DNA from: Actinomycetes bacterium
Lineage (GTDB): Bacteria > Actinomycetota > Thermoleophilia > RBG-16-64-13
DNA length: 64,000 nucleotides
Direction: 5' to 3'
NCBI GenBank assembly: GCA_024637035.1
Contig: JAGXFW010000026.1
Span: forward strand, 181,600 to 245,599
Shown here: in pieces, positions 27,655 to 44,086 of the stretch
Numbering within the stretch: the first letter of the stretch is position 1
Layout of the letters: every line of letters begins with the position of its first letter
The notes under the pieces: generated by a model
What the model was told of the DNA's origin: nothing
Database searches by the model: none
Seen by the model: only the letters and a program-made list of their open reading frames with translations
Position numbers and translations under genes: made by a program

Positions 27655-28452
27655 GTGACTGCTGAGATGCCAGCGTACGATTCGAGTAGCCCGACGAAAC
27701 GGGCGACGCTCACCACCGTGATCGCTCTATGGCTTCTCTGGGCCCTGTTGCTGTTCGGCGGTTTCGCGCTCGGCTCCGCGGCGGACGATCCCACCCACCG
27801 CATGCCCACTTGGACCCGCATGGCGTCGTCGCTGGCTTTGGTCGCCGCAGGGTGGGCGTGGTTCGCGCTATCGCGTTCGGGGGGCGGTCGGGGCGATCAG
27901 GGCAGCCCGCGCTTCCCACTGTTCTTGGCGCTCGGCATGACCGCCGGCCTCGCAGGAGACCTCATCCTGGCCGGGCTTCTCCCTGGAGGGGAGAACGTGC
28001 TCGCCGGGATCGCGGCCTTCGGCATCGGGCACGTGCTGTACATCGCCGCGATCCTCCACTGGGCGGGAGCCCACGGTCTCAACCGAGCCGGCCCGCGCTG
28101 GGCCTCGTTCGCGGCGTGGTGGGTGATCGGCGCGCTGGCCTGGTACCTGGTCGTATTCAGAGGGCAGGAGGCAACCGTGCTCCACTGGGCGGCGCTCCCC
28201 TACGCGCTTCTGCTGGCCGGCACCTGCGGCGCCGCCACCGGGGTGGCGGCGCAGACCCGCACCTTCGTACCGATGGCTGTGGGCGCAGCCCTGTTCCTGG
28301 CCAGCGACCTCATCCTGGCCGCGCAGCTCTTCAACGACCTCGACTTCGCACTGATCGGCGACGTGATCTGGCTCACGTATGGGCCGGGCCAGATGCTGAT
28401 CGTGTACACGAACGCGGTAACGCGAGAACCACGCCGCGGGGCCATCACCTGA
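27655..28452 (+). CDS. YhhN/lysoplasmalogenase-family membrane protein
   Basis: Eight hydrophobic segments with conserved GD...LA and FxxGHxxY-like motifs (GIGHVLYIAA) typical of the YhhN family. Confidence 0.5.
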   Translation: MTAEMPAYDSSSPTKRATLTTVIALWLLWALLLFGGFALGSAADDPTHRMPTWTRMASSLALVAAGWAWFALSRSGGGRGDQGSPRFPLFLALGMTAGLAGDLILAGLLPGGENVLAGIAAFGIGHVLYIAAILHWAGAHGLNRAGPRWASFAAWWVIGALAWYLVVFRGQEATVLHWAALPYALLLAGTCGAATGVAAQTRTFVPMAVGAALFLASDLILAAQLFNDLDFALIGDVIWLTYGPGQMLIVYTNAVTREPRRGAIT

Positions 28453-29443
28453 ACCGAGGCAGCACCTCATCGCCCAGTAGCTCGATAGCTCGGCGCGGGT
28501 CGGGGCCGAGCGGCCCGCCGAGCGACACGTGGGTCACGCCAGCCTCGAGCAGGCCTTCGATCTGCTCGACGACCTCACCGGACGTGCCCACCAGAGCCAG
28601 CCCGAGCATGCGGTCGGTGACTCGGGAAGCCGCGCCCCGATAGTCGCCGGCGACGATACACTCCCTGATCGGCGCCACGTCGGCAGGAGTCACACCGATC
28701 GTGTCCAGCGCCTCTTGCTCCAGGTAGGGGACGAAGTAAGCCACGATCTCCCGGATGGAATCGCGGGCGGCGTCCCCACTCTCGGAGATCGATACCCAGG
28801 CGCAGCCGGCGATCTCGAAGTCGGCCGGGTCGCGCCCGGCGCGACGGAGACCGTCGAAGATAGGCGCCAGCATCAGCGAAGCAGAGGCGGGCGGGGTCAC
28901 CATGGGAAGGCTGCCGTCGCACACCTCTCCGGTCATGCGAAGAAACTCAGAACCCCAACCCCCACCGTAGATCGGCAGGTCGCGGCGGCGTGGCTCGAAG
29001 CGTAGGTAGGCCTGCTCGGTCCAGGGGAAGGCATCGCCCCCGGCGACCACGCCGCCCTTTAGGAGGGCTCGCACCTTCTCCACCGCCTCCCGGGTACGGG
29101 CGATCATGTCTTCCGCGGGGATGCCCAGCCACCCGATCATCTCGTCGGTGTGCGGCCCGAGACCCAGGATGGCCCGCCCTCCGGAGAGCTCGTCGAGTGT
29201 GGCGAAGTATGACGCTATCTCCGAAGGTTCGGTGGTGTAGGGATTGGTGCCCACCGTCGCGACCTTGATCGTCGACGTGGCCGCCGCCACCGCCGAGCAG
29301 AAAGCCCAGCTGTTCTTGCGAAAGGTGTCATGGGGGAACCAGCAGGCGTCGAAGCCCTTTGCCTCAGCGAGTACGGCCCATTCGACCAGAGTGCGCGCCG
29401 GCGCCAAATGGTCCAGGAAGCGGATGCCGAAGGTGGAGCTCAT
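28445..29443 (-). CDS. LLM-class (luciferase-like) flavin/F420-dependent oxidoreductase
   Basis: TIM-barrel LLM motifs (FDACWFPHD...; GTNPYTTEP; GRAILGLGPH). It is the last gene of the long minus-strand cluster; the 4-nt overlap at 29440-29443 is with the upstream gene. Confidence 0.75.
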   Translation of the reverse strand: MSSTFGIRFLDHLAPARTLVEWAVLAEAKGFDACWFPHDTFRKNSWAFCSAVAAATSTIKVATVGTNPYTTEPSEIASYFATLDELSGGRAILGLGPHTDEMIGWLGIPAEDMIARTREAVEKVRALLKGGVVAGGDAFPWTEQAYLRFEPRRRDLPIYGGGWGSEFLRMTGEVCDGSLPMVTPPASASLMLAPIFDGLRRAGRDPADFEIAGCAWVSISESGDAARDSIREIVAYFVPYLEQEALDTIGVTPADVAPIRECIVAGDYRGAASRVTDRMLGLALVGTSGEVVEQIEGLLEAGVTHVSLGGPLGPDPRRAIELLGDEVLPRFR

Positions 29444-30507
29444 CGCCTTCGAGTCGGCGATTCTCCCCGCGGCTTGGGCCGGTTGCCTTCAGGCACAGCC
29501 AGCGCTGCCACCTCGGTCATGTGTATGCTGCCACCCGAAACCACACACACCACCTTGCCGTAGCCGGCGCCGCCGGCAAGCGCGCAGGCCACCGGGCACG
29601 CGCCGGCGCCTTCCGCGATCACATGATTGCGCTCCGCCATTAGCAAGAGCGCCGCCGCAACCGCGGATACCTCGGCCACCAGGCTCCCCGCGATCACGGG
29701 TCGTGCTCGTTCGAACATCTGGGGGAAGACCGTGGGGCTCCCGATCCCATCGACGAACGAAGATGTGTAGTCGATCTCGACGGGCTTCCCCGCATCGAGT
29801 GCCGCGGCGAGGGGGGCGGCTCCCGCCACCTCGGCCGCGTAGACCTTGATCTCGGGGCGCAGAGCGTGGGCGGCGGCGGCCACGCCGCAGGTGAGGCCGC
29901 CGCCGCCCCAGGGGGTGATGATGGCATCGGCGTCGGGTAGGTCTTCCAGTATCTCGAGTGCGATGGTGCCGTTGCCCGCCATGACCCAGGGGTCGTCGAA
30001 GGCGTGGATGAAGGTGCCTTCCACCCCGGGATAGGCGTGCTCCTCGAAGGCGCGCCACCACTCCTCGAACGGCACCCGGATCACACGGCCGCCCATACGC
30101 TCAACGGCGTCGGTCTTCACTTTGGGGGCCGATTCGGGGGCGACGACCGTGCAGGGGATGCCACGCTCACGTGCCAGCCAGGCGACTCCCTGGGCCATGT
30201 TGCCCGCGGAGGCGGTGACCACGCCGCGGGCGAGTGCCTCGGGCGGTGTCGCGGCCATGACGGCGGCGGCTCCGCGGATCTTGAACGAACCGATGGGCTG
30301 CAGGTTCTCGAGCTTGAGGTAGATCTCGGGGCCGTCGCCGGCCGGTCTGGTGGCGTCCAGGCGCACCAGCGGCGTGCGGATGGCCGACGCGCCGCCGGGC
30401 GGGCCGATGATGGCCAGGCGGGCGGTCTCGATCTCGGCGAGGGTAGGCATGACGGTCGCCGGACCGATCGCCGGGCCGAGGCCACCTGGAGCGGCCGCCC
30501 GACTCAT
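29440..30507 (-). CDS. PLP-dependent threonine/serine dehydratase-family enzyme (fold type II)
   Basis: PLP lysine in SFKIRGAA, plus TASAGNMAQGVA and the glycine-rich GGGGL loop; no C-terminal ACT domain. Confidence 0.75.
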   Translation of the reverse strand: MSRAAAPGGLGPAIGPATVMPTLAEIETARLAIIGPPGGASAIRTPLVRLDATRPAGDGPEIYLKLENLQPIGSFKIRGAAAVMAATPPEALARGVVTASAGNMAQGVAWLARERGIPCTVVAPESAPKVKTDAVERMGGRVIRVPFEEWWRAFEEHAYPGVEGTFIHAFDDPWVMAGNGTIALEILEDLPDADAIITPWGGGGLTCGVAAAAHALRPEIKVYAAEVAGAAPLAAALDAGKPVEIDYTSSFVDGIGSPTVFPQMFERARPVIAGSLVAEVSAVAAALLLMAERNHVIAEGAGACPVACALAGGAGYGKVVCVVSGGSIHMTEVAALAVPEGNRPKPRGESPTRRR

Positions 30508-31484
30508 CGCTTCACCAGCGTGCCGACGCCCCGATCACGCGCCAAGGCATAGACGTGTGCGGCCGCGGCCACGTCCTCCACCGCGATGCCCAAGGACTTG
30601 AACAGGGTGATCTGGTCAGACGAGGTCCTTCCCGGCCGCAGACCGGCCACCACCTCACCGATGGTCCCCCGGACATGCTCCGGCCCTATCGCCCCGGAGG
30701 CCACGGCCGAGCGGTACTCGGCCGACTCGTTCTCGGCGGCGGTGCGATCGTCGAGGAAGAGCGCGGAACGGGCCATGGCATCGTCGTCGACCTCGCAGGC
30801 GCCGGGCCCTCCGATCACGTTCACATGGGCGCCGGGTGCAAGCCAAGCGCCCTCGACGACCGGGGAGGTAGCCGTGGTCGCCACCACCACGAGATCGGCG
30901 TGCCGCACCGCCTGCTCCACACTGTCGACCGCGGTGATGGGAAAGGAGAAACGCGGACCATGCTCCTCGGCGAAGCGGCGGGCGGTCTCGCCGGTGCGCG
31001 AGGCCACACGCACGCTGCGCAGGTCGCGCACGGCGGCCATCGCATCCAGATGGTAGGCGGCCTGCACGCCCGCACCCACCAGGGCCAGGTCACCGGCGTC
31101 CTCACGCGCCAGCAGCCGGGTGGCCAGGGCCGAGACGGCCGCCGTACGGATGCCGGTGAGAGCCGATGCGTTGACCAGGGCCAGATTCTCGCCCGTCTCG
31201 GGGCTCATGAGCAAGACAGCGCCCTGGTGCGAGTCGATACCGAGTTCCCGGTTTCCTGGGAACACGCTGATCACCTTGATCCCGTAGGCGGGAGCGCGGC
31301 CGCCCAGAAAAGCGGGCATGAGACCCATGAGGCCGGCGGCCTTCTCCGGAGCCACCACCGACCGGAGCGGCATGTGGCAGTCGCCGCGGGCCAGGGCGAT
31401 GAAGGCCTCCTCCATCACGGGGATGCAGTCCTCGATCGAGAGCAATCCCTCAACATCTGCGTCGCCGAGCACGAGCAACTCCAC
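30504..31484 (-). CDS. Ornithine cyclodeaminase / mu-crystallin family protein
   Basis: N-terminal dimerisation region, Rossmann GAGVQAAYHLDAMAAV; family contains OCD, pyrroline-2-carboxylate reductases and SbnB-like enzymes. Confidence 0.8.
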   Translation of the reverse strand: MELLVLGDADVEGLLSIEDCIPVMEEAFIALARGDCHMPLRSVVAPEKAAGLMGLMPAFLGGRAPAYGIKVISVFPGNRELGIDSHQGAVLLMSPETGENLALVNASALTGIRTAAVSALATRLLAREDAGDLALVGAGVQAAYHLDAMAAVRDLRSVRVASRTGETARRFAEEHGPRFSFPITAVDSVEQAVRHADLVVVATTATSPVVEGAWLAPGAHVNVIGGPGACEVDDDAMARSALFLDDRTAAENESAEYRSAVASGAIGPEHVRGTIGEVVAGLRPGRTSSDQITLFKSLGIAVEDVAAAAHVYALARDRGVGTLVKR

Positions 31485-31496
31485 GGGAGCCTCCTT

Positions 31497-32489
31497 TCAG
31501 CGCACCTCAGAGGGGCCGAAGTATCCGCCGATCCGGCGCCATTCGTCGTCGGTCAGATCGAGTTCGAGCGCACGCAGGGCCGGCTCGAGCTGATCCGGGC
31601 GCCGCGGACCCACGATCGGCGCGGTGACACGCGGGTGTCGCACGACCCAAGCCAACGTCAGCGTCGCCATATCGACGCCCCGCTCCGCCGCGTGGGCGCG
31701 GAGCGCGTCGAGGGCATCGTGCACCCGCTCATTCAGATAGCCTCCGTAAGGCTCGGGGCGCAGGGTCATTCGCGAGCCCTCGGGGAACGGCTCGCCCCGG
31801 CCGTACTTGCCGGTGAGCCATCCTCCGGCCAGGGGACTGAACGGCGTGTAGCCCAATCCTTGGTCGGCCAGGAGGGGGAACAGCTCGGCCTCGTCGTTCC
31901 GCTCGAGCAGGCTGAACGAGTTCTGCACCCACTCGAAGCGAGCCCAGCCGTGCTTGTCGCTGAGCCAGAGCGCTTTCGCGGTGAGCCAGGCGGGCATGTT
32001 GGAAGCCCCGATGTAGCGCACTTTGCCCTGTCGCACCAGGTCGTCCAGCGCCCAGAGGGTCTCATCCAACGGCGTCGTGGGGTCGGGTTCGTGGATCAGA
32101 TAGAGATCGAAGTGTTCGGCGCCCAGGCGCCGCAGGCTGGCCTCCACCTGCCGCATGATGTGCCGCCGGGAGAGCCCCCAGTCGTTGGGACCTTCGCCCA
32201 CCGGATTGAACACCTTGGAGCTCAGGAGCAGCTGATCGCGTGCAGCCGGGCCCTTCCGCGCGAGCCAGCGACCGATCATCTCCTCGCTGCGCCCACCGCC
32301 GTAGGCGTCGGCCGTATCGAACACGTTGACACCGGCCTCGAAGGCGGCGTCCATGAGCGCGCCCGCCTGCTCCTCAGTCTCACCCTGTCCGAAGAAGGCC
32401 GGGGAACTGCCGATGCCTCCGAAGTTGCCACAGCCCAGTATCACCGAGGAGACCTTGACCCCCGTGCGTCCCAATCTCACGTACCGCAT
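31497..32489 (-). CDS. Aldo/keto reductase
   Basis: MRYVRLGRTGVKVSSVILGCGNFGG...DTADAYGGGRSEE; start set at the internal M (32489); the ORF-track N-terminal extension is Arg-rich junk. Confidence 0.8.
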   Translation of the reverse strand: MRYVRLGRTGVKVSSVILGCGNFGGIGSSPAFFGQGETEEQAGALMDAAFEAGVNVFDTADAYGGGRSEEMIGRWLARKGPAARDQLLLSSKVFNPVGEGPNDWGLSRRHIMRQVEASLRRLGAEHFDLYLIHEPDPTTPLDETLWALDDLVRQGKVRYIGASNMPAWLTAKALWLSDKHGWARFEWVQNSFSLLERNDEAELFPLLADQGLGYTPFSPLAGGWLTGKYGRGEPFPEGSRMTLRPEPYGGYLNERVHDALDALRAHAAERGVDMATLTLAWVVRHPRVTAPIVGPRRPDQLEPALRALELDLTDDEWRRIGGYFGPSEVR

Positions 32490-32496
32490 GTCCACT

Positions 32497-33300
32497 CTAC
32501 GTTCGCCCCGCTTTCTCGGCGGACGTCGGCGGACACGGCTTGAACGCGACGAGTCCTGTGCCCAACAGCTCCTCCTTGGAGCGCCGAACATGATCCAGCG
32601 CCGTCCGATTGGCTGCCTCCGGGTCGCGCGCCTCGATGGCGTCGAAGATAGCCTGGTGATCCACCACCACGCGCGCGACGCGCGAGGGGAGCGCCATGAT
32701 GGCTCGACGCGCGTCGAGCACGTGATCTTCAAGGTCGTTCAGGATCTGGGCGATGATCTGGTTGCCACCGACCTCGCGAATGATCCTGTGGAACTCGGAA
32801 TCCGCTGCCACCAGGGCTTCGTGATCCTGAGCCTCCACTGCCGCCTTCATCGCGGTGAGAGCGGACTCGAGCCGGCCCACGCCCCGGTCGGTGACGTGTG
32901 TCGCCGCAAGTTCGGCCACCTTCACCTCCAGCGCCTCATGCACTTCGAGCACCCGCACCACTTCCTGACGATGACCGAGGAGCCAGTGGAACCAATCGTC
33001 GGAGAGGGTGGTCACCGGCCGCTCGGCGACGTATGTGCCGCGCCCGGGTGCTACGCGCAGCACTCCCATGGTCTCCAAGGTGCGGATGGCTTCGCGCAGC
33101 GACGTGCGACTGACCGACAGCAACTCCATCAACTCGCGTTCGGGCGGCAATCTGACCCCCGGGGCCAGACTGCCATCGGAAACGAGTTTCTGGATCTGTT
33201 CCATGGCCCCGTCCGAGAGCCGGCGAGGCTTGACCGGCTTGAAGATCTTGTTCACAAGCACTGCTCCCGATCGGCGGCTTCTAGACCAGCGCTGCGTCAA
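32497..33300 (-). CDS. GntR-family transcriptional regulator (FadR/FCD subfamily)
   Basis: Winged HTH LPPERELMELLSVSRTSLREAIRTLETMGVL followed by a helical FCD domain. Confidence 0.8.
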   Translation of the reverse strand: MTQRWSRSRRSGAVLVNKIFKPVKPRRLSDGAMEQIQKLVSDGSLAPGVRLPPERELMELLSVSRTSLREAIRTLETMGVLRVAPGRGTYVAERPVTTLSDDWFHWLLGHRQEVVRVLEVHEALEVKVAELAATHVTDRGVGRLESALTAMKAAVEAQDHEALVAADSEFHRIIREVGGNQIIAQILNDLEDHVLDARRAIMALPSRVARVVVDHQAIFDAIEARDPEAANRTALDHVRRSKEELLGTGLVAFKPCPPTSAEKAGRT

Positions 33301-35954
33301 CCCCCCAAGTAGGCTTCCCTGATCGCAGCGTCGCCCGCTAGATTGCAGGCTTCATCGGCAGCGACGATCCGGCCCGTTTGGAGCACATAACCTCTGTGCG
33401 CGATGTTCAGAGCCATACTGGCGTTCTGCTCCACCATGAAGATGGTGGTGCCCAAGTCCTGGTTGATCTTCTGGATGATCTGGAACACCTGCTGCACGAG
33501 GATGGGCGAGAGTCCCATAGAAGGCTCGTCCAGGCAGAGTAGACGCGGCTCTGTCATGAGCGCCCGCCCGATGGCCAGCATCTGCTGCTCGCCACCTGAT
33601 AGCGTAGCCGCCTTCTGGTCCCGGCGTTCGTGCAGGATGGGGAACTGCTCGAACGCCCGCTCGATGCCCCGCTTGATCATGGCCTGATCGTTGGTGGTGT
33701 AGCCGCCGATCTTCAGATTGTCCAGCACGGAGAGCAGCGGGAACACCCGCCTGCCCTCAGGCACCAACGCGACGCCACTCGAGACGATGCGCCCTGTGGG
33801 CCACGCTTCGATGCGCTGACCATCGAACTCGATGGTGCCGGCGCTGGCGCGGACGTTGCCCATGATGGTCTTGATCGTCGTGCTCTTCCCGGCTGCGTTG
33901 GCTCCCAATAGCGTGACTATCTCGCCCGAGTAGACGTCGAGGTCCAAACCCTTCAGCACACTGATGGGACCGTAGCCTGCCTCGACGCCTTTGAGGCTGA
34001 GCAGGGGCGAGCCTGAGACGAGCGAAGGCTTGGAGGCCACCTCGCAATCCTCCTGCTCGCCCAGATAGGCGGCGATGACTTTGGGATGTTCCTGCATCTC
34101 CTTCGGAGTGCCTTCCGCCAGCACCTGCCCCTTGTTCACCACCACGATGCGGTCGGAAACGTTCATGACCACCGGCATCTGGTGCTCGACCAGTATCACG
34201 GTGTAGCCGCTGTCGCGGAGCTCCCTGATCTGGCGCGTGATCTCGCCCACTTCCGAGGGATTCATCCCGGCTGCGGGCTCGTCGAGCAACAGCAGGTTGG
34301 GTCGGAGGGTCATGGCGCGCGCGATCTCTACCCGCCGGCGGTCGGCGTAGCTGAGGGCTGTCACATAGTCGTCCTTGCGTTCGGCGACCGCGCGGTTGAA
34401 AAACGTCAGATTGCGGATGCCTTCCGCCTCGGCGACACCCTCCTCCCGATTGACGGCGCGAGTTCGAGCAATCGACCGAAAGATGCCGGCCTTGAGCCAG
34501 GGGTGAGCCCCCGCCATGACGTTGTCCAGGACGGAGAGCTGCGGAAATATGCGGATGTTCTGAAAGGTCCGCGCCAGACCGCGCGAAGCGATGCGATCGG
34601 GCGAGTTGCCCGTCAGGTCGTCGTCGCGGTAGGTGACCGTGCCGCTGTCGGGCTTGTAGATGCCGGTGATCAGGTTGAAGAGCGTGGTCTTGCCCGCGCC
34701 GTTCGGCCCGATGACTCCGAGGATCTCGCCTTCGCGGACCTCGAGTGTCACGTCGTCGACGGCAACGACCCCACCGAAGCTCTTGCTGAGACCCTTCACC
34801 GAAAGGAGCACGTCGCCGATCTTTGGCGCGTGGCTCTGGTTCGTGTCCTCACGCGCCGGGGTGATCGAAGGCGCGCCCCCACCTTCCGATGTGGACGAGA
34901 TACCCGGCGGCGGCGCACCCATGGCCTCGTCGATCGAGGTCCTACTCTTCCGCGCCCTGGCGCGCAACAAGCCCTGGGGCAACAGGACGATGACCACGAG
35001 GAGGATCAGACTCAGGATGGCCATGCGCCACTGGACCAGACTGGGGAAGTATCGCAAGAACTCCCCGAGGAACGTGTAGACCACGGCGCCCACAACGACA
35101 CCCACTGGGTTGCCCGAACCGCCCAGGATGATGATCAGGTAGACCGATACGAGCTCGTCGAGGCTGAAGTTCTTGTCGAAGACGCCCGCCTGGAACGCGG
35201 CGAGCAGCGCACCGGCAAGACCGATGATCGCCGCGGTCGTCAGAAACGAGAACACCCGGTAGCGGGGCAGGTTCACGCCCATGCTCGAAGCCGTGATCTC
35301 GTCGTCGCGGATGCCGGCCCAAGCTCGGCCGGTGCGGGAGTACAGCAGGCGCACCGAGATGAAGAGGACCGCCGCTGCGAAGATCCAATAGAAGTAGTAG
35401 TACTGTATCGGGCTCTTGATGGTGAGCCCGAACAACGCCGGCCGGGCTACGCCGGAGATGCCGTCCGGCCCGTTGGTGAGACCGTCCAGATTGAGTATCA
35501 GGCGCTGCACGATGTAGAAGAAGCCCAGGGTCACGATGGCAAGGTAGTCTCCGCGCACCCGCAGACTGGGGATCCCGATGACGGCGCCGAAGATGACGGC
35601 GACAAGCACGCAGATGGGCAGCGAAGGCCAGAATCCCAGGTGGATGCCGAGTTGGGCCGAGTTCAGAACCGCATAGGTGTAGGCCCCGATAGCGTAGAAG
35701 GCGATGAACCCCATATCGAGCAGGCCCGTGATGCCCGCGAGGATGTTGAGGCCGTTGCCCAGGATGACGTAGATGGCCACGGTCACCCCGACCCGGGTCC
35801 AGTAACTATTCTGGACCAGGAGGGGGAAGACGACGACAGCGAGAGCGAAGATGGCAAAGCGGAACTGGATCGGGATCCGGGAGGTCACCCGGGTGACCGG
35901 AGCGAGGCCGTGGGCCAGGAAGCCGCCGGCGCGCGTCTTGAACGATTCGGCCAT
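33297..35954 (-). CDS. Fused branched-chain-amino-acid-type ABC transporter: permease (LivM-like) + ATPase (LivG-like) + ATPase (LivF-like)
   Basis: N-terminal 8-9 TM permease, then two complete nucleotide-binding domains (Walker [13 protein letters not shown] and [12 protein letters not shown]; signature LSGGEQQML; Walker [11 protein letters not shown] and LLCLDEP). Confidence 0.8.
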
Positions 35955-35964
35955 GACTGCTCCC

Positions 35965-36873
35965 TCAGACCTTCACTGGGATCTGCTTACCCAGCAGTCC
36001 GGCGGGTCGGAACAGGAGCAGGACGATGAGTAACCCGAATGCGATGACGTCTCTGTAGGCATACGAGATATACGTGGCCCCTAGAGTCTCGGCGCTGGCC
36101 AGGATCAGCGCGCCCAGCACTGCGCCCCGCAAGTTACCGATGCCGCCCAAGACTGCTGCCGTGAATGCCTTCATGCCGAGGCCGAAGCCCATGGCGAAGT
36201 CCACCTGAGTGTAGTACAGACCTGTCAGCACACCCCCGATGCCGGCCAACATGGCGCCAACCAGGAATGTGGCCGAGATGATGCGGTTGACCGAGATACC
36301 CATGTAGGAAGCGGCTTCGCGGTCCTGGGCAGTGGCCCGCATGGCCTTGCCCATCTTGCTGCGCCCCATGAAGATCTCGAGGCCGATGAGGGTGATGATC
36401 GTCACCACCACGACCACGACCCGGCTCGCCGAGACGGTCACGTCGCCGATGTGCAGGGCCCAGGAATCCGGAAGCAGCAGATCGGTGCGAACGGGGCGGG
36501 CGCGGAACTTGGTGAGCACCCCCACGACGTTCCGCAGAAGGATGGACATGGCAAGCGCGCTGATGAGCGGAGCCAGACGCGCCGCGTTGCGCAAGGGCCG
36601 ATAGGCGAAGAACTCGATGCTCACGGCGAGCGCGCCACATACGGCCATCGCAATAACCAGCATCATGGCGATGATGAGGATGGGGTTCGCCGTGAGCTGA
36701 TCGCCCTGCAGGAACTGTTGCTGGACGAGGTATCCCACGAAACCCCCGATCATGAAGACCTCGCCATGGGCGAAGTTCAGCATGGTCAGGATGCCGTACA
36801 CCATGGAATAACCCAGGGCGAACAGTGCGTACACAGAGCCGAGTGTAAGCGCATTGACGACTTGTTGAGTCAT
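35965..36873 (-). CDS. livH: Branched-chain amino acid ABC transporter permease (LivH-like)
   Basis: 302-aa polytopic protein with LivH-type motifs (FAHGEVFMIGGF...; GIGNLRGAVLGALIL). Confidence 0.85.
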   Translation of the reverse strand: MTQQVVNALTLGSVYALFALGYSMVYGILTMLNFAHGEVFMIGGFVGYLVQQQFLQGDQLTANPILIIAMMLVIAMAVCGALAVSIEFFAYRPLRNAARLAPLISALAMSILLRNVVGVLTKFRARPVRTDLLLPDSWALHIGDVTVSASRVVVVVVTIITLIGLEIFMGRSKMGKAMRATAQDREAASYMGISVNRIISATFLVGAMLAGIGGVLTGLYYTQVDFAMGFGLGMKAFTAAVLGGIGNLRGAVLGALILASAETLGATYISYAYRDVIAFGLLIVLLLFRPAGLLGKQIPVKV

Positions 36874-37020
36874 GTGTGAACTGTCCTCCCCCAGATCGAG
36901 ATGGTTGGTTCCGCCAGCTCGGCGGCCGCGACCTGCGTGGGAAGCACGCCGCGTTCCCCCGCCGATCCCAGCCGGGGCGGCGGCGCCGCCCCGGCTGGGA
37001 CTACTACAAGTTGACCCGCC

Positions 37021-38304
37021 TTACGGCAGGGTCACCATCTTCACCGGAACGAAATCGCTGCCCTTCACCTGAAGGACGGTGATCCCACCGCCCACCAAGT
37101 CACCCTCAGGGGTGAACGCGATGGGGAATCCGAGGATGCCGGTGTAGTTCGAAGCGCTGAGGGCAGCGTTGACGGCCGCGCGGTCGATCTTGCCGTCCAC
37201 GACGCCTACGGACTTGATGGCCTCGAGCAGCACGTTGGTCGCCTCATACGACTGGGCGGTGAACGCGCTCGTCACTTGGTACTTGGCGATGTACTTGTCG
37301 AGGAACGGCTTGGCCGAATCCAAGGTCTCGGGCAGAGGGCCGAGAACGGTGGAGTACATCCCTTCGGTCGCGCCGCCGGCTGCCGTCATGAGTTCGCCGT
37401 CGTGGGTGCCGTCGGCTCCCATCATCTGGACCTGGAAGCCCATGCTCTTCATCTGCTTCGCGATGGCCGCGGCCTGAGGCGGATTGGGAAGGGGGACGAA
37501 CAGGACGGTGGGATTCATCTCCTTGACCTGCGTCAACACGGTCGCGAAGTCTTTGTCGGAGCCCGCGATCTGGGCACGCTTGACTGTCACGCCGCCGGCC
37601 GTCAAAGCTTCCTCGGCTTGATCGGCCAGGCCCTTGGCGTAGGCCTCACCGTCATCGATGATGAACACGCTCTCGGCCTTGAGGTCGTCGATCATGAACT
37701 TGGCGATCGAGGGACCCTGCACGCCGTCGCTCGGGCAGATGCGGTGGAACGACGAGAAGCCGAGCGTGGAGAGATTGACGTTGGTGGCCGACTGGGTGAT
37801 CAGGGCCACGTTCGCGTCGCTGAGGATCGGCAGCGCCGCCTGGACCGCGCCGCTGGTCATCGGGCCTACGACTCCCACGACCGATTCGTCAGAGGCGAAC
37901 TTCTCGGCGATCGTCGCGGCTTTGGCCGGATCGGCACCGTCGTCGCCTACTTCGACCGTGAACGTCACGCCCGGCATCGCGCCGGAAGCATTGAAGTCAT
38001 CAACAGCCATTTGGACGGCCTGGAGTGCGTCTGTGCCGATCTTGGCAAGGTCGCCCGTGAACGGGCCTGCCCCACCGATTTTGAAAGTGTATTCCTCCGT
38101 CGGCGCCGCGGTCGTGTCCGTCGAAGCTGCTGTGGTGCCGGTCGCGTCTGCTGTGGTGGTGGTCGTGTCGCCGCAGGCCGTGAGCGCGAGCCCAACGACC
38201 ATCAGGAGCGCCAGTACTGCCACCAGGTTCTTTGATACTTTCACTGCGTGTACCCCCTCGTCCGTGAACACATCAGGTGTTAGGAATTGTCGATATTCAA
38301 CCAT
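37021..38304 (-). CDS. ABC transporter substrate-binding lipoprotein (LivJ/LivK-like, branched-chain amino acid type)
   Basis: Lipobox LTACG, Thr-rich linker, then type-I periplasmic binding fold (KIGGAGPFTGDLAKIG...); start may be the GTG near 38238. Confidence 0.8.
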   Translation of the reverse strand: MVEYRQFLTPDVFTDEGVHAVKVSKNLVAVLALLMVVGLALTACGDTTTTTADATGTTAASTDTTAAPTEEYTFKIGGAGPFTGDLAKIGTDALQAVQMAVDDFNASGAMPGVTFTVEVGDDGADPAKAATIAEKFASDESVVGVVGPMTSGAVQAALPILSDANVALITQSATNVNLSTLGFSSFHRICPSDGVQGPSIAKFMIDDLKAESVFIIDDGEAYAKGLADQAEEALTAGGVTVKRAQIAGSDKDFATVLTQVKEMNPTVLFVPLPNPPQAAAIAKQMKSMGFQVQMMGADGTHDGELMTAAGGATEGMYSTVLGPLPETLDSAKPFLDKYIAKYQVTSAFTAQSYEATNVLLEAIKSVGVVDGKIDRAAVNAALSASNYTGILGFPIAFTPEGDLVGGGITVLQVKGSDFVPVKMVTLP

Positions 38305-38402
38305 CCCCGGCGTCCCTAGATGCTCGGCCCTCCCTTCCTCGCGAAGCCCGAATCGCCGCCCTGACTCTCACGCTGCGCCTTTCTGGAGTCGTGCATCGTG
38401 CA

Positions 38403-38789
38403 CTACCCGGCCAAGCGACAGACAGCGGAGATCTCCACCAGGGCGTCCTTGGGCAGACGAGCCACCTGCACGGTCTCCCGCGCCGGGGGTTCCCCGGGGA
38501 AGAAGCGGCCGTACACTTCGTTGAAGATCGGAAAATCGTTCATGTCGGCCAGGAAACAGGAGGTCTTGACCACGTGGGCCAAAGTACCTCCGGCCGCCTC
38601 GACCACCGCCGCCAGGTTGTGGAGCACGCGGTCGGTCTGCTCCATGATGCCACCCGCCACCAGTGAACCCGTCGCCGGATCGAGCGGTATCTGTCCGCTC
38701 ACGAACAGAAGACTGCCCGAGCGAACAGCCTGCGAGTACGGTCCGATCGCGGCCGGCGCACGATCCGTATGGATGATCTCTTTGCTCAA
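38403..38789 (-). CDS. ridA: RidA (YjgF/TdcF) reactive enamine/imine deaminase
   Basis: APAAIGPYSQAV...PARETVQVARLP; 128 aa; typical chorismate-mutase-like RidA motifs. Confidence 0.85.
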   Translation of the reverse strand: MSKEIIHTDRAPAAIGPYSQAVRSGSLLFVSGQIPLDPATGSLVAGGIMEQTDRVLHNLAAVVEAAGGTLAHVVKTSCFLADMNDFPIFNEVYGRFFPGEPPARETVQVARLPKDALVEISAVCRLAG

Positions 38790-40039
38790 GCTGACAGATC
38801 CTCCTCGAAGACGGCCTTCAAAGCATCCAGAGCCAGGTCCACGTCGTCAAGCGTGTTGTAGAAATGCGGAGCCAGGCGGATCACCGGGCCCCTCGCGGCC
38901 GCCAGGATCCCGCGCTTGAGCAGGAGGGCCTCCACGCGGTGAGATTCGCCCTCAGGGCACACGAAGGCGGTGCTCGGAGTCTTGCGCCCCGGGTCATCGA
39001 TGCCGTGGAGTCGGAAACCCCGGGCCCGACCACCTTCGATGAGGCGTCGAGTGAGGTGCTCGGTCCAGGCGGCGATCGCGTCCACGCCGATCTCGTTGAT
39101 CACGGCCATGCCGGCCCGAGAGATATAGGCGTTGATCACGGGGGGTGTTCCCGTGTCGAAGCGGGCAGCCGTGGGCGCCCAGTCCAGCCCCCGCACGTCG
39201 AACGCGAACGGGTTTGCTCGTCCGAACCAGCCGGTCACGGCCGGTTTCAGATGTTCAACCAGGCCGGGGCGCACGTAGAGGAAGGCGATGCCAGGCACAC
39301 CCAGCAAGAACTTCAAGTTGCCCGAGGCCAGGATGTCGATGTCCATAGCCTGCACATCGACCTTGGTGACGCCCAGACTCTGATAGGCGTCGACATACAG
39401 CAGGGCTCCTTTTTCATGAGCCTTGCGGGCGATCGCGGCGACATCCTGTACGTAGCCATTCTGGTAGTACGCATGACAGGCGGACACCAGGAGCGTCCGC
39501 TCGTCGATGACTCCGTCGTAGTCTTCCGTGTAGACGATGTCGTCGCGGACGGGCACCCAGTCGAGCTCGAGTCCGTATTTGGCGTGCGCCTGCCACACGT
39601 GAGCCACGGAGGGGAACTCCGCTTCGGTCGTGACCACCCTTCGCCGCTCACCGCTGAGGTCGAGCGCGCTCGCAAGGCTGGCGGTGGCCTCACTCACCGA
39701 GCTGGAGACGGCGATGTCGTCGGGCGAGGCGTTGATGAGCCGGGCGAACTCGACTTTGGCCTTGTAGGTCTCAGCCATCCACGCGTCCCAATCCATGCCG
39801 GCCTTGTTCCACGAGTCCAGATAAGCTTCGGCTGCCTCTCGCGTCACGTCGAGCTGGGGAGCCTGGGAACAGTTGTTCATCAGCACCAGGGACTTGAGAA
39901 GAGGGATGCGGCGACGCCAGGCGGCGATGTCGTACGCGGGCTGGGCGTTCGGAGAGCTTTCCACGACGTCCGTGCGATCGGCGACCATGGGGTCGGCGTC
40001 CACGCGCTCGGCGTGGGTGTGACCGGTGACCGCGCTCAC
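38786..40039 (-). CDS. Aminotransferase class V-fold PLP-dependent enzyme
   Basis: IPLLKSLVLMNNCSQAP N-terminal region and SGNLKFLLGVPGIAFL (SGHK-like PLP-Lys region); exact subfamily unclear. Confidence 0.6.
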   Translation of the reverse strand: MSAVTGHTHAERVDADPMVADRTDVVESSPNAQPAYDIAAWRRRIPLLKSLVLMNNCSQAPQLDVTREAAEAYLDSWNKAGMDWDAWMAETYKAKVEFARLINASPDDIAVSSSVSEATASLASALDLSGERRRVVTTEAEFPSVAHVWQAHAKYGLELDWVPVRDDIVYTEDYDGVIDERTLLVSACHAYYQNGYVQDVAAIARKAHEKGALLYVDAYQSLGVTKVDVQAMDIDILASGNLKFLLGVPGIAFLYVRPGLVEHLKPAVTGWFGRANPFAFDVRGLDWAPTAARFDTGTPPVINAYISRAGMAVINEIGVDAIAAWTEHLTRRLIEGGRARGFRLHGIDDPGRKTPSTAFVCPEGESHRVEALLLKRGILAAARGPVIRLAPHFYNTLDDVDLALDALKAVFEEDLSA

Positions 40040-40248
40040 CCGCTGATCCGCCCTATCCCCACGACGTGCCCCCCCTGACTGGATTCAATGATGAGATCTT
40101 CTCGCCGCCGAACCCACCCTGCGATTCTCTTCCGGCAGAGCAACGAACACCGCCGCTCGTGGTAGACAGATTGGACCGCAGCATACGACAGCGACGAAAC
40201 CCTGTCAACGCGCTCCTGTACGGGGTCCAGTGAGTTCCGACCGCCCGT

Positions 40249-41283
40249 CTACCCCAGAGCTGCCCGAGCCGCCCGCAGGGCGGCGTCAACTCCGGATGCT
40301 CCCACACCATGGTGCGTGACGAGGCGCACGCGAGTCGACCCCACTGCGCCCGCACGCACCCCAGCCGCCGCCAGGCCGGCCACGAACGAGGCCGCGTCCA
40401 GGCCATGCGCGACGACTTCCGCGAACACCATGTTCGTCTGCACGCACTCCAGATCCACATCCAGACCAGGAATGCCGGCCAACCCCTCGGCTAGGCGCCG
40501 TGCGTTCTCGTGATCCTCCGCAAGACGCTCCACCATGGTCTCGAGGGCCACGATGCCGGCCGCCGCCAGCACGCCCACCTGCCGCAGGCCTCCGCCCAGC
40601 ATCTTGCGGGCGCGACGGGCCTCGGCGATCCAATCGGCCGGCCCGGCCAGCATCGACCCCACCGGGGCGCAGAGACCCTTGGAGAGACAGAACATCACGG
40701 AATCCGCATGGGCCGCGATCTCAGCCGCGGGCACTCCCAGCGCCACGGAAGCGTTGAAGAGCCGGGCGCCGTCGAGGTGCACCGCCAGACCGCCGCGATG
40801 CGCCGTCGCGCAGAGGTCGGCCATCAGGTCGAGGGGAGCCACGATGCCACCCCCGGAATTGTGCGGGTTCTCCAGACACAGCAGGCGGCTGCGGGGAAAG
40901 TGCACGTCGTCGGGACGGATCGCGGTCTCCACCTGCTCCGGCCGCAGCAGACCCTTGACGCTCTCGAGTGGGCGGGCCTGGACACCGGAAAGGACGGCTA
41001 GGCCGCCCACCTCCGCGTCGTACACGTGGGAGGTGAGGTCGCAGATCACTTCGTCGCCGCGACGCGTGTGAACGAGCACGGCGATGCCGTTGCCCATGGT
41101 GCCGCTGGGCACGAAGAGGGCCGCTTCCTTGTCCACGCGCGCGGCGGCAAGATCCTCCAGACGGCGCACGGTGGGATCCTCCCCGTACACGTCGTCGCCG
41201 AGTTCGGCCGTAGCCATGGCCCGCAACATCTCTGGCGTGGGGAGAGTGACCGTGTCGCTGCGCAGGTCGACGACGGAGCTCAC
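40249..41283 (-). CDS. ltaE: Low-specificity L-threonine aldolase
   Basis: [20 protein letters not shown]...[11 protein letters not shown]...PSGTMGNG...; 4-nt overlap with the upstream AOR gene. Confidence 0.85.
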
Positions 41284-43160
41284 CCCTCGGCGCCTCTATC
41301 TACCCGCAGGCCCAGCTCGGCCAGCTTGGCCGGCGTGGGCAGGCCGGTGGCCACATCCCAGCCGCGCGCTTCGTAGTATTCGTCGAGCATCTGGTCGAGA
41401 TCGACCGTCGCCCCGGACGAGGGGGTGCCGGTCGGACCCAGGGGCTCCTCAAGGAAGCGGCGCGGCAGGGTGTCGTCCTTACGGGTGACTCCCTCGCGGG
41501 CGATGAACAGCCGCTCCAGGTTGACGATGCGCTCACCCGCCTGCCGCACCTCCTCGCCGGTCATGTCCCAGCCGGTCGAGGCGTTCAGGAGGTCGGCGGT
41601 CTCCTGCCAGTCGAGCACCTCCATGTTGTTGTAGGTGTTCTTGCAGACTCCGAGCGAGTCGCAAACGGCGGCCATCTCCTCGAAGTGCTTGACCACGCGG
41701 CCCTTGCCCTTGTGTTCCAAGCGGAAGGCCGACTCCGCGACTCCGTACCGGCGGATGCCCTCCTCGGCATCGCCGGAGAACTCGAACCAAGGCTCGGAGC
41801 GCAGGTGGTCGGCCCCCCTGCTGGAGACCGCGTTGCCGAGAGCGTAGGCCTTGACGGTTCGCGGGTCGGCCTGGAACACCTCGAGTCCCTTGGAGTGCAT
41901 GGCGATCTCCTCGGAGCCGCCGCCCACCCGCTCGGCCGCCGCGCGTACCCCGTCGGCCAGCACGTCACCGAACCCCTCCCGTCGCATGATCTTCTCGATC
42001 AGCGTCAATACCGCTTCCATGTTCCCCCAGGCGAGATCGAGACCGTCGGTATCGGCAGGCGTCAGGATGCCCCGCTCCTGGCACTCCATCGTCCAGGAGA
42101 TCACCTCGCTGAGGGCGATCGCGTCCATGCCGTAGCGATTGGCCAGGTCGACGCAGCGCAGGGCGAAGGCAAGGTCACCGTTGCCGATGCGCGAGGTGAA
42201 CCCGGCGAGGGGCTCGTACTCCGGCCCCTCGAGCTTGAGCCCGGGGAAGCGGGGATCGTCCACCACCAGGAAGCGGCTGCAGGGGATGGTGCACGAAAAG
42301 CACGCCTTGCTCTTCACCTTGAACCGCGCTTCGATCGTCTCGCCACTCACCTGGTCGGCGTATTCGAAGCGGCCCTCCTTGAAATGCCGGGTGACGATGC
42401 CACCGATGCCGTTCATCGCCTTCACCAGCTTGGTCGTGCCGAGGCGCACCCTGATCTCGTACTCCTCGTGAGAGTAGATACGCTCGTCGACCATGTCGAT
42501 GAGCCGTTGGAACCCTTGCATGTCGGCCACCGGCACCGTCCCGGTGCCCCGCACAGCCACGGCCTTCAAGTTCTTGGAGGCCATGAGCGACCCCATGCCC
42601 GTGCGGGCGGCGGCCCGCACCAGGTTGGTGAAGATCCCGGCGAAACGCACGCCGTTCTCCGCCGCGGGACCGATCACCGCGGTCTGCACGTCGCGATCGC
42701 CAAGCTCCGCCCGGATGGCCTCGGTGGCCTCGGTGACGTCCAGTCCCCAGAGGCCGGAGGCGTCGCGCAGTTCCACCCAATGATCCCAGATCACTAGATA
42801 GACCGGGCTTTCGGCACGGCCTTCCACAATGAGTTGATCCACCCCAGAGAACTTGAGCTCGGGGCCGAAGAACCCGCCGGCGTTGGAGTCGCCCAGGATG
42901 CCTGTTTGCGGCGACATGCCGCTCACGTTGAAACGGGAGCCGCCGGGGAAGAGCGACCCCGCGAGCGGTCCCACCCCAAAGATCAACTTGTTCTCAGGGG
43001 CCAGGCCGTCGGTGTGGGCCGGCACCTCGTCCCAGAGGCGCTTGACGTTGAGGCCTCGTCCGCCCAGGAAGGCGCGGGCTTCGGCCGGGTCGGTGGGCTG
43101 CCTGGTGATGCTCCCGCTCGTCAGATCCACGCGCAGGATGGAGCCGCCGTAGCCGTTCAC
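41280..43160 (-). CDS. Aldehyde:ferredoxin oxidoreductase (AOR family, tungsto-/molybdopterin-dependent)
   Basis: AOR N-terminal domain [13 protein letters not shown]...GGRGLNVK...[20 protein letters not shown] and the large C-terminal pterin/4Fe-4S domain. Start set at GTG 43160, preceded by GGAAAGGGGGA; the ORF-track 764-aa version has an Arg-rich false extension. Confidence 0.85.
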
Positions 43161-43849
43161 TCGGTCCCCCTTTCCTTCTGCGTGGGTCTCTCGCCGCGCG
43201 GCGCCCCTGCGGGCGGGCGGTTCGCCCGGAAGCGGGCGGGCGCTAGACCTGAGGCGCCCGTAGGTTCGGGGTGGGCGCCGGAAGCGGCATCGGCGCCCTG
43301 AGCACCGACGGGACCGCCGCCCGATTCGCCGCCGCCGGATGTGTCGTTTCGGGTATCGCCCGTGCGCCCACCGAGCTGCCGCAGGGCCAGAGTCTCGCGC
43401 CGGTCCCGAGCTTGTTCGTCGACACCGCCCCAGCGTATGGCCCCCGGAGCGCAGCGTTTCACGCAGGCGGGGTCGCCGTCGCAGAGATCGCAGATGAGAG
43501 GTAGGCCGGTGGTTGGATGCATGATCACCATGCCGAAGGGACACCCGTCGGCACAAGCGCCGCAGGCGATGCATTCCTCCTCGTTCAGCCGCACCACGCC
43601 CAGAGAGGCGTCGCGACTCAAAGCACCGGCTGGGCAGGCTTTCACGCAGCCCGGCCGCCGGCAGAGCCTGCAGACCGAAGGCACGTCGAGGCCCTCGGTC
43701 TCGATCTTGGTGACCTTGATGCGGGCTGCACCCGTGCCGAAGCCACCCTCGTGCGCGGCCACGCAGGCCAGCATGCAGGCTTTGCAGCCGCTACATATGT
43801 CGCTCCGCACCAGAATGCGTCCCGCGCGCCCCATGTGCTCCACCGTCAC
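43157..43849 (-). CDS. 4Fe-4S ferredoxin-type electron-transfer protein (AOR partner)
   Basis: Four Cys clusters (CSGCKACMLAC; CRLCRRPGCVKACP; CIACGACADGCP; CDLCDGDPACVKRCAP); GTGA overlap with the AOR start; Gly/Ser-rich C-terminal tail. Confidence 0.75.
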   Translation of the reverse strand: MTVEHMGRAGRILVRSDICSGCKACMLACVAAHEGGFGTGAARIKVTKIETEGLDVPSVCRLCRRPGCVKACPAGALSRDASLGVVRLNEEECIACGACADGCPFGMVIMHPTTGLPLICDLCDGDPACVKRCAPGAIRWGGVDEQARDRRETLALRQLGGRTGDTRNDTSGGGESGGGPVGAQGADAASGAHPEPTGASGLAPARFRANRPPAGAPRGERPTQKERGTE

Positions 43850-44086
43850 CTTTCAATCGTCCGCAGCGGCCGAGCAGCCGGCTCCACGATCACGCCTCCA
43901 GACGCACACGTGCCGATGGCCGCCACACCCGCTGGTGCGGTCCGAACATCAGACCACAGGATAAGGAACGCCCGGAATGCTGTCAATGGGCATGCCCCCG
44001 GTACACCCGCCGTGGCCTTCCCCGGGCTGCCTGCCGGCATGGTCGCCACAATCACCGCTTTGTTGCGATAGGCTTGCTATTGAGAG

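Follow-up and report, generated by a model that had tools for sequence, protein, structure and literature searches.

In a 64,000-nucleotide stretch of DNA from an Actinomycetes bacterium of the Thermoleophilia lineage (contig JAGXFW010000026.1, positions 181,600 to 245,599 of the forward strand; here called the window), we identified 13 minus-strand genes that join an ABC importer to a tungsten-type aldehyde:ferredoxin oxidoreductase (AOR), several pyridoxal 5′-phosphate (PLP) enzymes, and a set of reductases. The cluster probably constitutes a two-operon regulon with which an anaerobic Thermoleophilia-type actinobacterium takes up and ferments one class of α-amino acid. Rather than encoding one fixed linear pathway, it brings together four modules that can be exchanged.

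Open reading frame (ORF) and domain analysis upheld the location of the cluster, 28445–43849 on the minus strand, given in an earlier reading of this DNA (the original prediction). That reading counted 14 genes; we count 13, as does its own list of products, and its family calls were all borne out by Pfam and NCBIfam profile searches (Table 1). In order of transcription, the products are a ferredoxin-like subunit (Fdx), the AOR, the threonine aldolase LtaE, a class-V-fold PLP enzyme, RidA, a binding protein, and LivH, followed by a LivM-LivG-LivF fusion (LivMGF), a GntR/FCD regulator, an aldo-keto reductase (AKR), an OCD-family reductase, an IlvA-type PALP protein, and a luciferase-like oxidoreductase (LLM). 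The 4-nt overlaps reported earlier occur at six junctions (Fdx/AOR, AOR/LtaE, class-V/RidA, LivMGF/GntR, OCD/PALP, and PALP/LLM). Only three gaps are sizeable, namely those from LtaE to the class-V gene (209 nt), from RidA to the binding protein (158 nt), and from the binding protein to LivH (147 nt); the remaining non-overlapping junctions measure 10, 7, and 12 nt. From LivH through LLM, spacing ranges from −4 to 12 nt, with the regulator gene in the middle of the block. Both edges of the cluster are strand switches. G+C content is 0.635–0.643 at 32–40 kb, the part that contains the class-V, transporter, and regulator genes, and 0.68–0.70 at both enzyme ends (28–32 kb and 40–44 kb).

Table 1. 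Features of the cluster and its immediate neighbors, in window coordinates
Feature	Positions	Strand	Remarks
NHL/CWB2 gene	44087-46153	+	divergent neighbor, one edge
Promoter P1, TTGACA-17-TATCCT	43958..43986	-	predicted sigma-70-like, 5′ of ferredoxin gene
Operator O1 (predicted), GGTCTGATGTTCGGACC	43939..43955	-	begins 2 nt past P1 -10 box
WorS/AorA-type electron-transfer subunit (Fdx)	43157..43849	-	Pfam Fer4_11 + Fer4_7
Tungsten-type AOR large subunit, WorL	41280..43160	-	626 aa
Low-specificity L-threonine aldolase, LtaE	40249..41283	-	Beta_elim_lyase 2.9e-107; 4-nt overlap with AOR
Promoter P2, TTGACA-17-TATGCT	40180..40208	-	predicted sigma-70-like, in LtaE/class-V gap
Operator O2 (predicted), GGTCCAATCTGTCTACC	40161..40177	-	begins 2 nt past P2 -10 box
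Class-V-fold PLP enzyme, kynureninase/SufS-like	38786..40039	-	Aminotran_5; leads importer operon
RidA enamine/imine deaminase	38403..38789	-	TIGR00004 166.7 vs cut-off 106.25; 4-nt overlap with class-V gene
5′ leader of binding-protein gene	38245..38375	-	conserved, ~130 nt
LivJ-type substrate-binding lipoprotein	37021..38244	-	Peripla_BP_6
GC-rich hairpin	36967..36999	-	directly 3′ of binding-protein stop; -45.3 kcal/mol, z = -3.4
LivH-type permease	35965..36873	-	BPD_transp_2; LivH model 1.3e-74
LivM-LivG-LivF fusion	33297..35954	-	885 aa; BPD_transp_2 + two ABC_tran + BCA_ABC_TP_C
GntR/FCD-family regulator	32497..33300	-	start codon overlaps LivMGF stop
Aldo-keto reductase, AKR	31497..32489	-	330 aa; Aldo_ket_red 3.8e-76
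OCD/mu-crystallin-family NAD(P)H reductase	30504..31484	-	OCD_Mu_crystall 9e-78
IlvA-type serine/threonine ammonia-lyase catalytic domain (PALP)	29440..30507	-	PALP 2.2e-64
Luciferase-like oxidoreductase LLM, Mer type	28445..29443	-	Bac_luciferase
YhhN gene	27655-28452	+	convergent neighbor, other edge

A consensus scan of positions 28000–44300 returned only two sigma-70-like promoter matches, P1 and P2, both on the minus strand and both intergenic. Each is followed by a predicted operator (O1 and O2), a 17-bp palindrome-like site with the common pattern GGTC-N9-(G/T)ACC; the counterpart of O2 in more distant relatives is a perfect palindrome, GGTCGAACCATTCGACC. Phylogenetic footprinting revealed that promoter and operator are conserved across related loci while the surrounding intergenic DNA has diverged: P1 is kept in L003, L005, and L094, and 14 related loci retain P2 ahead of their class-V gene. 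With the prefix TGY, the motif occurs in the cluster region only at O1 and O2. A third match falls beyond the cluster, at ~51614–51633; chance alone would give about 0.56 matches over the window. Since there are two promoters, each followed by the common operator, the genes would form not the single co-directional unit of 14 genes originally proposed, but at least two transcription units, one comprising fdx-AOR-ltaE and the other running from the class-V gene through LLM. A single repressor would control both, and the FCD protein encoded here is the most probable candidate.

Control by this regulator, as the original prediction had it, gained support from its association with the operator. In a scan that covered 24 related loci, the promoter plus operator, or the operator alone, was present in all 15 loci with either the regulator gene or the region ahead of the class-V gene, and in none of the nine lacking both. 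The LtaE gene has its own copy of the operator in L092 and L010. The regulator combines an N-terminal GntR winged helix-turn-helix domain (PF00392, 3.2e-18) with a C-terminal FCD domain (PF07729, 6.2e-28), which together with a palindromic operator at both promoters places it in the FadR/FCD branch of the GntR family; binding to the operator is predicted. The nearest named models, NanR, LldR, PdhR, and GlcC, each score below cut-off. As its gene overlaps the LivMGF stop codon and lies 7 nt ahead of the AKR gene, the regulator is encoded inside the second unit. The cluster therefore supplies a clean predicted repressor-operator pair.

To follow the arrangement across genomes, we anchored loci on the binding protein, taking one genome per species together with exact-sequence contexts, used the class-V enzyme in metagenomes as a further anchor, and mapped the window proteins onto all loci. 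Three related species represented by metagenome-assembled genomes (MAGs) (L003, L004/L094, and L005; binding protein 86–92% identical) have the full order with LLM missing, and most of it is found at 60–68% identity. In L009, L084, and L088 (65–67%), nearly everything is present, with a tryptophanase-family lyase added between LivMGF and GntR; in L084 and L088 (67%), an aminotransferase, an FrhB-like protein, and IorA-IorB lie ahead of Fdx-AOR, and a second class-V enzyme replaces LtaE. Four loci (L008, L087, L091, and L092; 63–65%) contain LtaE, the class-V enzyme, an Asp/Glu-racemase-family protein that replaces or joins RidA, and the importer, without AOR or OCD; L008, L087, and L091 also carry GntR, AKR, and PALP, and L092 ends within LivMGF. 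The importer, AKR, and PALP are all that is found in L007 (63–68%). Further afield, three Bacillota loci (L012, L015, and L086; ~50%) have Fdx-AOR-binding protein-LivH-LivMGF only, with an AOR 60–61% identical to that of the window. A Spirochaete MAG (L013, 46–50%) has a divergent LtaE, RidA, a racemase-like protein, a class-V enzyme, and the importer, adjoining a 2-oxoacid:ferredoxin oxidoreductase and an ADP-forming acyl-CoA synthetase.

These comparisons show that the importer is constant and that four separable modules surround it: the WorS-WorL tungsten AOR with threonine aldolase; the kynureninase/SufS-like PLP enzyme with RidA; the GntR/FCD regulator; and the AKR, OCD-family reductase, IlvA-type dehydratase, and Mer-like LLM. 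It is from the table of presence and absence across loci that we regard the enzyme sets as exchangeable. Two members of the last module are dispensable. OCD is absent from L007, L008, L023, L087, and L091, and LLM is absent from L003 and L094; in L009, L084, and L088, LLM is 85–91% identical to the window protein, versus 65–67% for the transporter.

The freedom with which the modules part in other genomes would also be expected if there were no functional unit and unrelated operons simply lay head to tail on one strand by accident. The mostly unrelated contexts of the class-V and PALP families, and the three gaps of 147–209 nt, fit that explanation as well. It nevertheless appears very unlikely, as it does not account for one operator at both promoters that co-occurs with the regulator gene, for the tight packing around that gene, or for the retention of order over 60–92% protein identity. 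Moreover, an AOR or a class-V gene is again adjacent to the importer in loci from other phyla (L012, L015, L086, L013, L104, and L138).

The importer belongs to the HAAT family, with a Peripla_BP_6 binding protein, two BPD_transp_2 domains, and two ATPase domains with the BCA C-terminal motif. The LivG and LivF parts of the fusion protein score 375 and 373 bits, and across Actinomycetota, Bacillota, and Spirochaetota all of this transporter subfamily has the LivM-G-F fusion (865–1041 aa). The binding protein is read from a conserved GTG (38244) and then begins with the signal peptide of a lipoprotein, with the lipobox LTAC; a Thr-rich linker is also present. We rejected a longer, ATG-started ORF (from 38304), as relatives have in-frame stops.

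The nearest structures to the binding protein are Atu2422 (3ip5) and LivJ. Its pocket signature reads I-M-T-S-S-A-T-Y-P-D-G-F, versus Y-L-C-S-A-A-T-Y-Y-E-G-F in LivJ: S79, T102, Y150, and F276 are kept, E226 is replaced by Asp as in Atu2422, and Y18 and Y202 are replaced by Ile and Pro. Most of the residues that would hold an α-amino acid are retained, a pattern compatible with an amino-acid ligand and with the amino-acid importer of the original prediction. Loss of the two LivJ tyrosines suggests a larger, not a smaller, ligand. The 12-residue signature is unchanged in 36 of the aligned homologs, nearly all of those with at least 55% identity, and most members of the Bacillota group differ from it by one residue (T to N). 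Because the signature is shared, the neighborhoods of these importers can reasonably be pooled.

Pooled in this way, the contexts contain several genes of aromatic amino acid metabolism. A tryptophanase/tyrosine-phenol-lyase-family gene (PRK13238, 657–659 bits versus a cut-off of 285) is found near orthologous importers in five loci, inside the operon in L009, L084, and L088 and beside the importer in L023 and L021 (Bacillota). The indolepyruvate:ferredoxin oxidoreductase IorAB occurs in three loci (L084, L088, and L011), and a tyrA-aroA-aroC-aroKB-aroQ block lies immediately upstream in two Bacillota MAGs, L018 and L014. Because of these lyases, IorAB, and the aro block, an aromatic (Trp/Tyr-type) substrate is somewhat favored, although not established; the contexts favor aromatic amino acids no less than they favor threonine/serine. 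HAAT systems are often broad in specificity, which is a caution on the aromatic reading. A β-hydroxy (Thr/Ser-type) substrate is a doubtful but possible alternative, and we give a similarly tentative place to an importer that is broad in specificity.

In three Bacillota loci, a HydG gene lies just downstream of the orthologous importer (L021 15201–17842, L086 18239–21257, and L015 ~11975–13441), accompanied by HydE in L021 and L086. HydG is the [FeFe]-hydrogenase maturase that uses tyrosine. This adjacency is probably coincidental.

Two noncoding elements flank the binding-protein gene. Its 5′ leader is conserved at the nucleotide level even where the upstream gene differs, contains the invariant purine block GAGGAAGGGAGGGCCGAG, and has a further conserved stretch that reaches the GTG start; L006 and L008 have stop codons in frame here, which indicates that it is noncoding. 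We rejected a riboswitch or leader RNA, as there was no relevant Rfam match and RNAalifold gave −5 kcal/mol with little covariation. The GC-rich hairpin that follows the stop codon is found at the equivalent position in relatives and is a probable attenuator or mRNA stabilizer. A hairpin after the binding-protein gene is a usual means of raising the binding protein above the membrane components.

The first unit contains a genuine AOR-type enzyme, for which a tungsten cofactor and a ferredoxin carrier are predicted. The large subunit has both AOR domains (PF02730, AFOR_N, 2e-73; PF01314, AFOR_C, 2.1e-129) and matches Pyrococcus furiosus AOR (1aor) at 5.6e-123 and 8c0z at 2.8e-100. Its start codon is the GTG at 43160, within a GTGA overlap with the Fdx stop, and L001 carries an identical 626-aa gene call. 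The WorS-like subunit has four CxxCxxCxxxC-type cluster motifs and ends in a low-complexity tail, and its best solved relatives are the Fe-S subunit of Aromatoleum aromaticum AOR (8c0z_C, 5.5e-26) and that of WOR5; a twin-arginine motif was not visible at its N terminus. Both AFOR domains and an adjacent subunit with four [4Fe-4S] motifs correspond to the class II WorL and WorS genes of a published scheme (PMC13328260). Neither WorN nor WorABC is among the AOR's neighbors (LtaE and the divergent NHL gene), and it is because there is no WorN/AorC NAD subunit that we assign class II and not class III. We found no tungstate transporter within the 64-kb window. Characterized relatives of this AOR oxidize aldehydes from amino-acid breakdown (PMC13328260, PMC6365974). 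Of 92 clades of tungsten oxidoreductases, just 5 have been given a defined role in physiology, and characterized class II enzymes number only two (PMC13328260).

At the head of the importer operon, the class-V enzyme resembles kynureninase and SufS without belonging to either group. The best solved match of its family profile is kynureninase (1qz9, 1e-32, full length), in an alignment that includes the GWFG motif and the C-terminal arginine region. An AlphaFold2 model (pLDDT 84) and Foldseek were unable to separate the kynureninase fold (TM 0.83–0.85 to 1qz9) from that of SufS (TM 0.79–0.84), and identity to any solved enzyme is only 21–24%. A true kynureninase was rejected on the TIGR01814 score (73 bits versus a cut-off of 246). 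A cysteine desulfurase was rejected because the catalytic Cys is missing, with ARGPVIRLAP in its place, and the SufS score is 106 versus 475. The family has more than 3000 homologs that are 60–66% identical across phyla. In every annotated context that we examined, the class-V enzyme lies beside an amino-acid importer, often with 2-oxo-acid or aldehyde enzymes.

Outside Thermoleophilia, the class-V gene also belongs to a conserved operon that encodes an amino-acid symporter of the SNF family, a split thiamine pyrophosphate (TPP) decarboxylase resembling ComDE/Ppd, and a KynB-like cyclase, on Gemmatimonadota-type and other contigs (L169 8001–12453; L170 8001–12405). This operon appears to be uncharacterized.

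The final module is predicted to be largely reductive. The AKR has as its best structures, at ~6e-64, 4xk2 (an aldo/keto reductase) and 7utf (an aryl-alcohol-dehydrogenase-like AKR). The OCD-family protein is likely an imine or ketimine reductase: its best structure is Δ1-pyrroline-2-carboxylate reductase (6t3e, 3e-66), followed by archaeal alanine dehydrogenase, and it scores below the Δ1-pyrroline-2-carboxylate/piperideine-2-carboxylate reductase equivalog (NF004793, 244 versus 322). LLM probably depends on F420; its best structural matches are Mer proteins (8qq8, 7.9e-49), with scores under both Mer equivalogs (NF002619, 223 versus 276; TIGR03555, 204 versus 349).

The PALP protein contains the IlvA catalytic domain (1.4e-44), with the motifs SFKIRGA, ASAGNMAQG, and GGGGL and no ACT domain, and its family is 67–70% identical across phyla (Acidobacteriota, Chloroflexota). 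The motifs agree with the dehydratase family named in the original prediction. However, the protein falls below every threonine ammonia-lyase equivalog cut-off, the best being TIGR01127 (233 versus 379; TdcB, 187 versus 453). It probably works like a dehydratase, outside the IlvA and TdcB equivalogs. We also rejected membership in SbnAB, with scores below the cut-offs. An adjacent OCD (53% identical) and PALP (70% identical) pair stands alone on a Pyrinomonadaceae contig (L172 5842–7948), which suggests that OCD-PALP is a self-contained dehydratase and imine-reductase couple of the BhcB/BhcD or EutB/EutC type that acts on a different substrate.

A more distant PALP homolog (44% identical) is encoded in a GntR-PALP pair on plasmid pSR1 of Aminobacter sp. 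SR38 (L174 2969–8951). The pair adjoins an annotated kynureninase, an ABC transporter, and salicylyl/anthraniloyl-CoA-type degradation genes. This kynU/PALP context is suggestive, but the homolog is too distant, and we rejected a transfer of function from it.

The original prediction offered threonine/serine-type catabolism as a coherent reading of the cluster. In a dedicated pathway of this kind, LtaE would produce glycine and acetaldehyde, the AOR would convert the aldehyde to acetate, and PALP would dehydrate threonine or serine to a 2-imino acid that RidA hydrolyzes or OCD reduces, giving 2-aminobutyrate or alanine. Part of it held up. LtaE scores above both curated NCBIfam cut-offs (NF041359, 454.9 versus 230; NF007825, marginally, 312.4 versus 312), its gene is translationally coupled to that of the AOR by the 4-nt overlap, and PALP has the ASAGNxAQG and SFKxRG motifs without the HSSGNH motif of serine racemase. 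RidA is known as a partner of IlvA-type enzymes, and E. coli tdc offers a precedent for a dehydratase, a transporter, and a RidA paralogue together. The chain from LtaE through acetaldehyde to the AOR did not withstand comparison with other genomes, as AOR and LtaE are linked in no loci other than the window and the three relatives nearest to it; LtaE occurs without AOR in L008, L009, L087, and L091, and AOR without LtaE in L084, L088, L012, L015, and L086. In addition, PALP misses all threonine- and serine-dehydratase cut-offs, and the class-V enzyme that heads the importer operon has no part in the scheme. Relatives with an identical pocket carry the tryptophanase-family lyase and IorAB in the cluster, and the two lost tyrosines suggest a larger ligand. 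We consider dedicated threonine/serine catabolism unlikely.

The same enzymes could also run in the opposite direction, as an assimilatory analogue of the β-hydroxyaspartate cycle. The AOR would reduce an acid with reduced ferredoxin, LtaE would condense the aldehyde with glycine, PALP would dehydrate the resulting β-hydroxy amino acid, OCD would reduce the imine, and transamination by the class-V enzyme would regenerate glycine. AORs are capable of acid reduction (PMC9295118), although this demands very low-potential electrons. The BhcA-D enzyme types are all present and the OCD-PALP pair recurs alone in L172, but the matches to the Bhc models are weak and miss the equivalog cut-offs widely (BhcA, 26 versus 650; BhcB, 171 versus 550; BhcD, 169 versus 500). 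LtaE differs in fold type from the BhcC aldolase. With these scores and no BhcC-type aldolase in the cluster, we rejected membership in BhcABCD. Furthermore, OCD, AOR, and LtaE are not co-conserved, and a repressor-controlled high-affinity importer is typical of catabolism. We therefore regard the assimilatory cycle as highly improbable.

Our analysis shows the gene families, their tight packing, the two promoter matches with a common operator that tracks the regulator gene, and conservation by modules. For the two-operon fermentation regulon that we favor, we infer the direction of flux, the pairing of enzymes with substrates, the effector, and the substrate as follows. The GntR/FCD protein would repress both promoters through the palindrome, and a small carboxylate or 2-oxo-acid product would relieve repression once product or substrate accumulates. 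Operon 2 would import the amino acid through the lipoprotein binding protein, LivH, and the LivM-G-F fusion. The kynureninase/SufS-like enzyme may then catalyze its cleavage, elimination, or deamination, and the IlvA-type enzyme may eliminate water and ammonia. These PLP enzymes would yield aldehydes, enamines or imines, and 2-oxo acids; a released enamine or imine would be hydrolyzed by RidA or reduced by the OCD-family enzyme, with the AKR and the Mer-like F420 enzyme as further reductive sinks. From operon 1, LtaE would contribute retro-aldol cleavage to glycine and an aldehyde, and the class II tungsten AOR would oxidize aldehydes to acids, with ferredoxin receiving the electrons via the four-cluster subunit. 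In L084 and L088, the presence of an FrhB-like gene next to IorAB fits a link from ferredoxin to F420.

A more specific form of this proposal, a previously undescribed anaerobic Stickland-like dismutation, is at present improbable. Here the kynureninase-like enzyme would make the first cleavage, the AOR would form the oxidative branch, the dehydratase, OCD, AKR, and Mer-like enzymes would form the reductive branch, and the FCD protein would act as the switch. The reductive branch would remove the hydroxyl or imine function of one imported, probably aromatic-type, amino acid. If true, this would give a physiological role to a WOR clade that is new and to two families of PLP enzymes that are orphans at present.

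Several points weigh against the fermentation regulon. Neither the tryptophanase-family lyase nor IorAB, together the mainstay of the aromatic argument, is encoded in the cluster of the window itself, and the aro adjacency comes from two related MAGs of one lineage with gaps of 460–560 nt. LtaE, the IlvA-type PALP, and RidA are classically threonine/serine enzymes. The class-V enzyme both fails the kynureninase cut-off and lacks the SufS cysteine. As all the NCBIfam equivalogs for PALP, OCD, AKR, and LLM are below cut-off, the substrates of these enzymes cannot be read from homology. The GntR protein was paired with the operator through co-occurrence only, and a third promoter may be concealed in the conserved leader that precedes the binding-protein gene.

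Elsewhere in the window, a gene for a YdiJ-like FAD/Fe-S/CCG dehydrogenase of 1020 aa precedes one for a LarA-family protein, which resembles malate or 2-hydroxyacid racemases (21687–26017, plus strand); such a pair also adjoins the related cluster in L087. An MttB-superfamily methyltransferase gene, an uninterrupted 493-aa frame with a third-position GC of 0.93, adjoins genes for an IclR regulator and an acetoacetate-decarboxylase-family protein (56117–59460, minus strand). Three large secreted proteins with NHL or cadherin-like repeats and three CWB2 domains are encoded at 44087–48203 (plus strand) and 62051–64000 (minus strand). CWB2 cell-wall-binding domains are better known from Clostridia than from Actinobacteria.

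The original prediction held that the combination is not a textbook pathway, and our literature searches agree: they returned no description of this arrangement, including AOR with threonine aldolase and Thermoleophilia with AOR, and nothing relevant on OCD with dehydratase and AKR or on a class-V enzyme with split decarboxylase and cyclase. The family of each part, and the general idea of AOR-assisted amino-acid fermentation, are established. What is new is a class II AOR coupled physically and regulatorily to one importer, the dehydratase/OCD pair, and the orphan kynureninase-like enzyme in this setting. Because shared operators tie the AOR to a specific importer and to PLP enzymes, the role of a class II AOR becomes directly testable. 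In addition, it draws attention to two highly conserved and very large enzyme families without an assigned substrate, the kynureninase/SufS-like enzymes and the IlvA-type dehydratases that pair with an OCD-family reductase. The cluster may also give a concrete picture of amino-acid fermentation by uncultured anaerobic Thermoleophilia from digesters and sediments.

Individual parts resemble known systems to differing degrees. The class-V enzyme shares its fold with KynU and SufS/NifS (TM 0.79–0.85), and an ortholog lies near a KynB-like cyclase in other phyla; it differs from them in its low scores, its 21–24% identity to solved enzymes, and its missing SufS cysteine. Oxygen-dependent formation of kynurenine in this anaerobe is unlikely. 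The importer shares with LIV-I/HAAT LivJHMGF the binding-protein fold, the permease and ATPase families, and most of the residues that would clamp the α-amino and α-carboxylate groups. It differs in the fused LivM-G-F, the Thr-rich linker of its lipoprotein, the Y18-to-Ile and Y202-to-Pro substitutions, and its catabolic-enzyme neighbors.

Like BhcB/BhcD and EutB/EutC, the cluster places a fold-type-II PLP dehydratase beside an OCD reductase, here with a 4-nt overlap, in a pair that recurs in Acidobacteriota (L172). However, it scores below cut-off not only for the Bhc models (BhcB, 171 versus 550; BhcD, 169 versus 500) but also for EutB (192 versus 413) and EutC (180 versus 472), and the substrate of OCD-PALP would therefore differ from those of the Bhc and Eut systems. 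OCD is also missing from several otherwise orthologous clusters. We rejected membership in hydroxyectoine EutABC on these scores, together with the lack of DoeA- or DoeB-type genes in the cluster.

The E. coli tdcABCDEFG operon likewise joins a transporter, an ACT-less IlvA-type dehydratase, and the RidA-family protein TdcF under anaerobic, substrate-linked control. Here an ABC importer takes the place of the TdcC permease, the propionate kinase TdcD and the keto-acid formate-lyase TdcE are missing, PALP is under the TdcB cut-off, and an AOR, an aldolase, a class-V enzyme, AKR, OCD, and LLM are added.

The comparison that touches the AOR directly is with peptide fermentation in Thermococcales (PfAOR) and anaerobic phenylalanine degradation in A. 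aromaticum (AaAOR). The enzymes are of the same AOR family, with an AorA/WorS-type four-cluster subunit, and are proposed to oxidize aldehydes from amino-acid breakdown (PMC13328260, PMC6365974). The related loci L084 and L088 have IorAB immediately upstream, in keeping with the Thermococcales scheme. In contrast, the window's cluster has no WorN/AorC and no 2-oxo-acid decarboxylating enzyme, its host is a high-GC actinobacterium, and its AOR genes are tied, in position as well as in regulation, to a single ABC importer and a threonine aldolase.

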